Below, in pieces: positions 20,764 through 21,105 of a DNA stretch of 64,000 bases. This DNA is from an uncultured Acidobacteriota bacterium (GTDB taxonomy: Bacteria > Acidobacteriota > Thermoanaerobaculia > UBA5066 > Gp7-AA6). Position 1 is the stretch's first letter; each line of letters starts with the position of its first letter. The translations under genes were made by a program, and so were the position numbers. Below the pieces are notes generated by a model. That model ran no database searches and had not been told where the DNA came from. It saw only the letters and a list, made by a program, of their open reading frames with translations. Where the stretch lies: positions 169,064-233,063 of the forward strand of contig CAVULG010000004.1 in NCBI GenBank assembly GCA_963742245.1, given 5' to 3'.

Positions 20764-20931
20764 CTCGAGCCCGCCTCCCTGCGTTCGGCACGCGGCGGCC
20801 GGCCGTTGAAAGTCAGAACCGGCCGCCGCTGACCCGACCACCGAAGGCAAACCCCCAGCGGTAGGGAACGCCGCGCGAAGCGCGGCGGTAACGTCGACCC
20901 ATCACGCTCTCATCCGGGAGGCGGGCTCGAG
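20764..20931 (-). other. Fold-back element 1 with 29-aa ORF (20902-20813)
   Basis: 16-bp perfect terminal inverted repeat [64 protein letters not shown]; homologous to element 2. Confidence 0.6.
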
Positions 20932-20952
20932 AGCTGACTGCATGCCCCGGCT

Positions 20953-21105
20953 GGCCTGCGGCGTCTCCCGGAGGAGGTGATATGCGGCGGCCCACGCCGA
21001 GGTCCGACTGACGTCTCAGTGCGGCTGGGCCGACGATTCAGCGGCGGCCGGTAGTTCCCCTGAGGACGGCCGCCGCGTGCCGGACGCAGGGAGATGCCGC
21101 AGGCC
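20953..21105 (+). other. Fold-back element 2 with strong SD and tiny ORF
   Basis: 17-bp terminal inverted repeat with one G.U; GGAGGAGG SD (20970-20977) and ATG at 20982; shares 14-nt and 27-nt blocks with element 1. Confidence 0.6.

Follow-up and report, generated by a model that had tools for sequence, protein, structure and literature searches.

The stretch of DNA analysed here (hereafter the window) comprises 64,000 nucleotides of contig CAVULG010000004.1 from an uncultured Acidobacteriota bacterium, and carries, between an Hfq-related gene and a convergent sugar transferase gene, two oppositely oriented fold-back elements, which together form one head-to-head heterodimer of about 340 bp, the repeated unit. 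That these elements (named type A and type B) belong to a dispersed repeat family is, in our opinion, practically certain. The family is new, yet elements of this general kind, of which it is a variant, are well known in bacteria, and it is not a toxin, a peptide or an hfq-linked RNA gene. As regards its main nature, we consider it probable that the elements are non-coding, non-autonomous, selfish DNA, similar to the REPINs (repetitive extragenic palindrome (REP) doublets forming hairpins) and BIMEs (bacterial interspersed mosaic elements).

The repeat family and its distribution

Element 1 of the window is a type-A monomer located on the minus strand (20759..20936). Its closing helix, P1, is a perfect 16-bp inverted repeat (20764-20779 / 20916-20931), which lengthens to 21 nt with 90% complementarity over 20759-20779 / 20916-20936. 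Element 2, a type-B monomer of the plus strand (20953..21105), is closed by a 17-bp inverted repeat (P1, 20953-20969 / 21089-21105) with 94% complementarity, the one departure being a G.T, and contains two further helices, i.e., P2 (20982-20994 / 21026-21037), which has a variable loop, and P3 (21041-21050 / 21067-21076). The P3 hairpin of element 1 (20792..20829, minus strand) is formed by GCGGCGGCCGG and CCGGCCGCCGC (11 nt, 100% complementary) around a 16-nt loop, and belongs to the core common to all subfamilies. These GCGGCGGCCG(G) hairpins are perfect in both elements (20792-20802 / 20819-20829 and 21041-21050 / 21067-21076), and the core that the two elements share in opposite orientation extends over 30 nt with 93% complementarity (20775-20804 versus 21064-21093). 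The two 5' ends are separated by a 21-nt spacer (20932..20952; AGCTGACTGCATGCCCCGGCT), which is conserved among the doublets of this genome. A previous sequence-only reading of the region had noticed the inverted repeats at the element ends, the core common to both elements and the tiny open reading frames (ORFs), all of which are present at the positions given there, and its proposal that the two elements are homologous holds.

The predicted folding energies were -113.9 kcal/mol for element 1 and -94.4 kcal/mol for element 2 (z-scores of -6.6 and -4.7, respectively, against dinucleotide shuffles). Because these folds far exceed those of the shuffled sequences, and the same architecture occurs dozens of times in the genome, the elements are not products of chance. 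BLAST searches of the window's own genome (G000; 3.76 Mb in 10 contigs, 75% complete) with elements 1 and 2 gave 79 and 76 matches, respectively, and iterated nhmmer searches, after merging, distinguished 48 places, i.e., 24 full type-B copies (150-158 nt), 10 copies with type-A ends, five long copies (about 207 nt) and nine partial or other ones. An inner core is common to the subfamilies, with CTCCCGGAG..GGTGAT at the 5' side followed by TCAGCGGCGGCCGG-loop-CCGGCCGCCGCGTGCC..CGCAGGGAG, and it is in the outer closing helix and the P2 arm that they diverge. The five long copies are type-B elements with a 61-nt module (M) inserted immediately 5' of P3, at one and the same internal position in all of them. 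Element 1 is a hybrid, since it combines type-A ends with M instead of the type-A P2 arm; its ends recur in nine other copies, all with a different P2. In the covariance-model search, element 1 was matched with 42 bits (C4:189827-189994(-)) and element 2 with 137.6 bits. A tandem array of five near-identical units with a period of about 215 bp was found at C6:73257-74272 of G000. Separately, two truncated type-B copies of this genome are followed by a further repeat of about 210 bp (at C7:1144889-1145100 and C9:649872-650085), as if it had been inserted into them.

The head-to-head arrangement is a constant feature of the family. Besides the window, there are seven places in G000 where a type-A copy faces a type-B (or long) one head-to-head, with a truncated partner in one case, and the spacer between the 5' ends of the G000 dimers is 19-24 nt long, GCTG.CAGCG.GCCCC-like and conserved. 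In a related complete genome with a single contig of 4.46 Mb (G068, which holds locus L091), all 29 adjacent pairs are arranged as minus-then-plus and no other arrangement was found. Head-to-head pairs were also detected in G003, G029 and G031 and, as counted by reading of the match table, in about 40 of the 81 loci searched in other genomes. There, the spacer is about 40 nt long and conserved, and each monomer is bracketed by CCCCGG...CCGGGG.

The covariance model of the family (R1) gave at least 96 matches in G068. With strict filters, and with many of the searched genomes incomplete, matches were obtained in four of 36 other genomes of the genus (7 in G003, 6 in G029, 3 in G031 and 1 in G027), and no copy of the family was found in 24 genomes representing two other families of the order. 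An exact-pattern scan of the genomes of 185,579 species revealed 70 loci, 69 of which are located in seven assemblies titled as Acidobacteriota or Thermoanaerobaculia metagenome-assembled genomes (MAGs). The remaining one came from a record titled Gemmatimonadales. A host range crossing phyla, which this record might suggest (G074:C10:13059-20504, loci L208-L210), was rejected, as the family is confined there to the first 21 kb of an 844-kb contig, and these 21 kb share synteny and 86-94% identity with G068, G070 and G072, which are Acidobacteriota genomes. The occurrence is probably due to a chimeric contig, or else to a very recent transfer, and is not evidence of a broad host range. Nothing similar was found in the plasmids, phages and viral contigs searched.

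The Rfam 15 search over both elements gave PtaRNA1 as the best match, with 17.3 bits against a gathering threshold of 47 (E-value 2.8), and the same search over seven further copy-bearing loci revealed only tRNAs and sub-threshold noise. Literature searches, which covered open-access papers and bioRxiv preprints, also found no account of the family. As an aside, a repeat-rich stretch downstream of a RAYT-like gene (RAYT, REP-associated tyrosine transposase) was matched by the PrrB/RsmZ family (L010:1648-1807, minus strand; 30.8 bits, below the gathering score of 44), which is probably noise from repeated GGA-containing hairpins. The sequence-only reading had proposed an undescribed family of structured RNAs or peptide-encoding mini-genes: the novelty and the conserved structure stand, and the peptide genes do not (see below). 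It had set against its proposal a match to a known Rfam family, which was not found, or to the ends of a MITE (miniature inverted-repeat transposable element) or insertion sequence (IS); the latter does apply in spirit, the family being dispersed and insertion-polymorphic, though no parent IS was found.

Fold, coding potential and transcription

According to the consensus of 24 type-B copies, each monomer of about 150 nt forms a three-helix junction composed of the closing helix P1/P1b and the hairpins P2 and P3. The loop of P2 is variable, and P3 with its junction constitutes the conserved core. For folding and ORF counts, we used 38 full-length sense copies of G000 taken from the covariance-model search, and all of them fold strongly (-82 to -146 kcal/mol, z-scores of -2.8 to -10.9).

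Maintenance of the helices was analysed in two alignments. In the first one, comprising the type-B copies of G000 and a consensus to which two pairs inside the GGAGGAGG stretch had been added by hand, 96.6% of the cells were paired and eight pairs showed changes on both sides (30 cells); the observed values were reached by 0-3 of 500 shuffles, and slid controls gave at most three double-change cells. The second alignment comprised 121 copies (117 distinct), which were collected by R1 from loci of other genomes and fitted to the model. Among the distinct copies, 88.4% of the cells were paired (76.8% after shuffling), and double changes were found in 32 of 42 pairs and 429 cells (108 in shuffled alignments and at most 64 with slid partners), counts which are inflated by the relatedness of the copies and by the fitting of this alignment to the model. 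One pair of P3 covaries as CG in 64, AU in 29, GC in 16 and UA in one copy. The structure of the two elements is, as had been suggested, preserved by compensatory changes.

The fold is also asymmetric with respect to the strand. G.U/U.G combinations occur 171 times in the paired positions of the family and A.C/C.A ones 42 times, and all ten copies with type-A ends are more stable in the sense than in the antisense orientation, by 6-17 kcal/mol. For type B the comparison is mixed, with the sense strand favoured in 24 of the 38 copies overall. The excess of G.U pairs and the bias in stability thus indicate that the fold is somewhat strand-specific, which points to a single-stranded form, either RNA or DNA.

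A fold of this kind could belong to multi-copy genes for trans-acting non-coding RNAs, each monomer having its own promoter. The conserved three helices, the covariation and the G.U bias are what such genes would show, and as no known family matches, they might constitute a new RNA class. Nevertheless, we regard this explanation as very unlikely. A scan of positions 20300-21500 revealed no sigma-70-like promoter, which is weak evidence, other promoter types being outside the scan; two divergent promoters could not be accommodated without reaching into the partner monomer, as the 5' ends of the partners are separated by 19-24 nt (in other genomes, by about 40 nt). Moreover, the copy number, the subfamilies, the truncated copies, the tandem arrays and the patchy distribution fit repeats better.

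The coding potential was the other basis on which the elements had been considered as genes. On the minus strand, a 60-aa frame (20813-20995) encloses the 29-aa frame of element 1 starting with ATG, and in element 2 a GTG frame (20977-21054) encodes a 25-aa peptide with the C-terminus RRFSGGR. Hence, Arg-rich peptide mini-genes, or fold-back mRNAs akin to those of type I toxins, were proposed, with the similar C-termini, the stops at the start of the P3 loop and the GGAGG upstream of the frame in element 2 speaking for them. The 25-aa frame stopping at this place is kept in three of the 38 full copies; elsewhere it has from 7 to more than 76 codons, ending after 7-15 or 42-54 codons or running beyond the element, because the length of the P2 loop varies by non-multiples of three. 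Of the 38 copies, 18 have an ATG close to the GTG, and the C-termini are similar because the sequence of the P3 stem is conserved. The GGAGGAGG taken for a Shine-Dalgarno sequence of element 2 turned out to be a part of the conserved helix/junction, and two of its own positions covary with the 3' strand in other copies: pair 22/142 is GC in 11, CG in three and UA in two copies, and pair 23/141 is CG in eight, AU in two and GC in one; seven copies, including that of the window, are unpaired there. The observation that the window peptides are not hydrophobic was correct, as they are Arg/Gly-rich, and this too argues against toxins. With such a poorly conserved ORF, neither the peptide mini-genes nor the kinship with type I toxin mRNAs survives, and we leave them next to no chance.

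It should be stressed that the window's assembly probably contains indels, as judged from the flanking genes (see below), and small-ORF reasoning is therefore unsafe here. At the 3' ends of the elements, no U-tract terminator was found, and one weak terminator-like site lies inside module M. Only a minor part of the stretch is represented in public runs; in one DNA run and three RNA runs placed on it, RNA contigs covered both flanking genes and were missing from 20698-21111. Since these contigs derive from relatives and are of low depth, they allow no verdict on transcription.

Insertion sites, module M and the proposed mode of copying

None of the 48 places in G000 is spanned by a clean ORF, with one borderline ORF call over one place. 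The coding strand of the flanks was called from the codon-position G+C phase, which tolerates assembly frameshifts, and the gene calls are crude. Among 35 loci, 21 are located between convergent genes, 13 between co-directional ones and one between divergent ones, compared with a crude ORF-based background of 21.5% convergent and 17.4% divergent spacers (binomial p of about 9e-7 and 0.01, respectively). The copies lie tens of nucleotides from gene ends, and the orientation of type-B copies in co-directional spacers, as counted by reading of the locus table, is mixed (four sense and two antisense).

The presence or absence of the elements at orthologous sites was compared between species, not within one. 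The Hfq-related and sugar transferase genes are neighbours in 43 of 43 congeners, and the spacer between their aligned parts is about 420 nt long in the window and 25-28 nt in G034 and G067; in many other congeners it amounts to 5-80 nt, as read from alignment coordinates. Analogous differences were found for three sites of G068, where spacers of 540, 319 and 468 nt correspond to 32 nt in G072 (site 1), 11 nt in G069 (site 2), and 16 nt in G072 and 46 nt in G073 (site 3, which is filled in G069). The suggested link to hfq was thus not upheld: the locus is one of 35, and the gene pair stays adjacent in all congeners, even where the spacer is minimal.

The position of the copies could be explained by a host-selected cis-acting RNA module, whose hairpins, when transcribed by read-through, would end or protect mRNAs and insulate convergent genes, with spreading being secondary; such a role is not exclusive of selfish DNA. 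The prevalence of convergent loci, the proximity to gene ends and the strand-biased fold, with the sense advantage of the copies with type-A ends, are in line with it, and REPs are reported mostly between unidirectional or convergent ORFs and proposed to act as RNA (PMC3733652). Against this, each transcript entering a dimer first meets the antisense strand of the nearer monomer, type-B copies have no consistent sense advantage and are inserted in either orientation between co-directional genes, and the element ends lack U-tract terminators. In addition, the family is absent from 32 of the 36 congeners searched, and the orthologous spacers manage without it. Selection of this kind as the primary explanation appears to us rather unlikely.

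Selfish DNA is favoured by the copy number, the maintained fold, the pairing of the monomers, the location between genes, the scattered occurrence, the filled and short orthologous sites, the tandem array, the shared place of M in the long copies and the lack of a conserved ORF. The following scenario may be proposed. The family would multiply as DNA within a few Thermoanaerobaculia-like Acidobacteriota, its copies persisting where they are least harmful, i.e., at the 3' ends of genes, and the heterodimer of the window would have arrived, in the lineage of this genome, in the short spacer at the 3' ends of two convergent genes, the Hfq-related and the sugar transferase one. Evolution by module shuffling would account for units such as element 1, in which the genus-wide M may have taken the place of the P2 arm. 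The copying itself would be transposition-like and proceed via a folded single-stranded intermediate, recognised by a putative trans-acting enzyme in the way RAYT recognises REPINs. As a side effect, the very stable hairpins might act as 3'-end barriers when the flanking genes are read through.

Several observations weigh against selfish DNA as the main nature of the elements. A search of G000, which is three-quarters complete, with the terminal 21-mers (up to three mismatches) revealed no longer element with the same ends; what it gave beyond the known copies were solo fragments of these ends. The genes enclosed by four pairs of neighbouring copies in G068 are ordinary ones (for an HlyD-like adaptor, a HAD hydrolase, a nucleotidyl transferase and a methyltransferase). 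None of the four Y1_Tnp genes of G000 and the six of G068 adjoins a type-A or type-B copy, the nearest one, in G068, being at a distance of about 9 kb. When filled and short sites were aligned between species, this yielded no clean target-site duplication or precise empty/filled junction, because the compared genomes belong to different species with unalignable spacers; direct repeats flanking the G000 copies were not found either. Finally, the structural evidence is ambiguous on mechanism, as a functional RNA would also give strong covariation and a G.U bias, and hairpin-templated repair of palindromic DNA can yield compensatory changes without selection. Outside G000, the CCCCGG...CCGGGG brackets may represent either a duplication of a palindromic CCGG or just an extra helix; in G000, GCCCCGG...CCGGGGC with a short loop occurs five times and GCCCCGGGGC 17 times, which is not informative on a target palindrome.

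Among the Y1_Tnp genes of G000, three encode proteins of 325-368 aa without repeats nearby. The fourth is a 157-aa RAYT-like gene (C9:32966-33280; L090:1426-1899; PF01797, 34 bits), which is flanked by GTAG-type GTAGGGGCGGGGCTTGCCCCCGCCC REPs; a stand-alone M lies 117 bp downstream, and no type-A or type-B copy adjoins it.

Concerning the neighbouring genes, the Hfq-related gene (20334..20710, plus strand; stop codon TAA at 20708-20710) is frameshifted near 20590 in this assembly, and other public contigs have one additional base at 20588-20593. The N-terminal piece from the window has no match in Pfam. Its intact ortholog (L076:780-1157) is matched by PF21979 Hfq_1 with 31 bits (cut-off of 27) and by PF17209 Hfq with 20.7 bits, below the cut-off of 27; the gene upstream of the elements is thus Hfq-related rather than a canonical hfq. 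On the other side lies the 3' part of the convergent bacterial sugar transferase gene (21130..~21990, minus strand; stop codon at 21130-21132), split over at least three frames, with three pieces matching PF02397 Bac_transf. The frameshifts in both genes are probably assembly indels. A 16-nt piece (AACGGGTCTGCGCCTC) of the repeat of about 210 bp that follows the two truncated type-B copies of G000 is present just after the stop codon of the Hfq-related gene, at approximately 20710-20725 of the window. In several congeners, the spacer between these two genes contains unrelated repeats, which differ between species (loci L076-L086), including arrays of GTAG-type REPs, GGGGTCTGACCCC hairpins and other tandem repeats, as well as a copy of module M in G001 and G015, and it looks like a hotspot for repeat insertion.

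Module M, whose copy nested in element 1 occupies 20832..20892 (minus strand), is a 61-nt two-hairpin insert and represents a separate, genus-wide repeat family, which is carried by 39 of the 44 genomes of the genus, in many cases in more than 10 copies. It occurs as stand-alone copies and inside the five long type-B elements. Hairpin H1 covaries (CG in 21, UA in 18 and GC in six copies), and hairpin H2 is held by several G.U pairs and therefore folds on one strand only. Further copies are located in G000 at C9:33397-33475, C9:57254-57332, C9:82821-82885, C9:365201-365263 and C9:384603-384663, and also at loci L174-L202. By inspection of 48 copies, M was found in the stems of GTAG-type REPs (12 copies), in the H2 loop of another M (7-9 copies), in a T-loop-like stem belonging to a partial tRNA 3' end next to an intact tRNA gene (five copies) and also inside type-A/B elements. 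Closing helices of at least 6 bp surround M in 23 of the 48 copies, compared with 33% in the control, which by this crude stem score is weakly above it. Judging by this inspection, M may be a tiny element targeting hairpin loops.

A bolder reading, which is doubtful at present, would treat the type-A/B family and M as a new class of strand-specifically folded mobile elements, i.e., large three-way-junction units travelling only as head-to-head heterodimers, with neither a RAYT nor a recognisable parent IS, whose targets, or at least those of M, would be the loops of hairpins already in place (in REP stems, in helices of the element itself and in T-loop-like stems of tRNAs). If true, this would imply an enzyme recognising a folded single-stranded DNA or RNA intermediate.

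Elements of this kind can terminate nearby mRNAs or make them more stable, give rise to rearrangements and interrupt assemblies. The R1 model now detects dozens of these loci in Acidobacteriota MAGs, which would otherwise be annotated as small ORFs, small RNAs or toxin-antitoxin candidates, and the repeats mark lineages within this uncultured soil group.

Comparison with known systems

The part of the survey of stem-loop-containing repeat families of bacterial genomes by Cozzuto et al. (2008, PMC2267715) that was available to us does not name the type-A/B family.

The mRNAs of type I toxins (hok, ldr and aapA) are closed by a long-range 5'-3' helix that encloses a small ORF, and a single type-A/B copy resembles them in this respect. 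Unlike these mRNAs, the type-A/B elements have a non-conserved ORF and a peptide that is not hydrophobic, they occur in dozens of copies per genome, and neither an antisense RNA gene nor a promoter was seen at them in the scan of 20300-21500. They have neither the conserved small ORF for a hydrophobic peptide that marks type I toxin mRNAs nor the U-tract after a G+C-rich hairpin that marks intrinsic terminators.

A closer resemblance is to MITEs, of which Correia and ERIC-type (enterobacterial repetitive intergenic consensus) elements are bacterial examples. MITEs (for a review, see Delihas 2011, PMC3184786) and the type-A/B family have in common a length of 150-350 bp, terminal inverted repeats (here P1 of 16-17 bp) and a strong predicted fold. 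Both are intergenic, non-coding, and present or absent at orthologous sites, which for our family was found, between species, at the Hfq-related locus and the three sites of G068. In contrast to MITEs, a parent IS sharing the ends of the family did not emerge from searches, not exhaustive, covering the 21-mers in G000, the four inter-element regions of G068, plasmids, phages and viral contigs, and no target-site duplication could be shown. A further difference is that the internal helices, and not just the termini, are kept by compensatory changes, and that all adjacent monomers of G068 are head-to-head. Hence, of the properties of MITEs, the family has the terminal inverted repeats and the presence/absence pattern, and no parent IS was found for it.

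The strongest likeness is to REPs, REPINs and BIMEs (Bertels and Rainey 2011, PMC3116915; Di Nocera et al. 2013, PMC3733652), which are, like the type-A/B family, extragenic, multi-copy and palindromic. According to the latter paper, head-to-head dimers with conserved spacers predominate among REPs and heterodimers exist, REPs lie mostly between convergent or unidirectional ORFs near their 3' ends, the family size varies strongly between species, and REPs of the CGTC type have no associated transposase. The type-A/B family shows head-to-head (hetero)dimers, which comprise all 29 adjacent pairs of G068 and, with a conserved spacer, seven pairs of G000, a location near 3' ends between convergent or co-directional genes, and a copy number varying strongly between related species. 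It is not a REP/REPIN family in the strict sense on three counts. First, REPs are simple hairpins of 20-40 nt, while the type-A/B monomers have 150-158 nt and three helices. Second, the ends carry no conserved GTAG or CGTC tag; assignment to the CGTC-tagged REPs was considered and rejected, as the antisense CGTC, which falls in variable or covarying positions, is missing from a part of the copies. Third, identity with RAYT-mobilised REPs or REPINs was rejected, as no RAYT flanked by type-A/B repeats was found in G000 (75% complete) or G068, and the one classical RAYT of G000 has a different, GTAG-type REP. With the type-A/B family, the REPIN/BIME pattern is extended to more complex units of five times the size, with no RAYT found in association.

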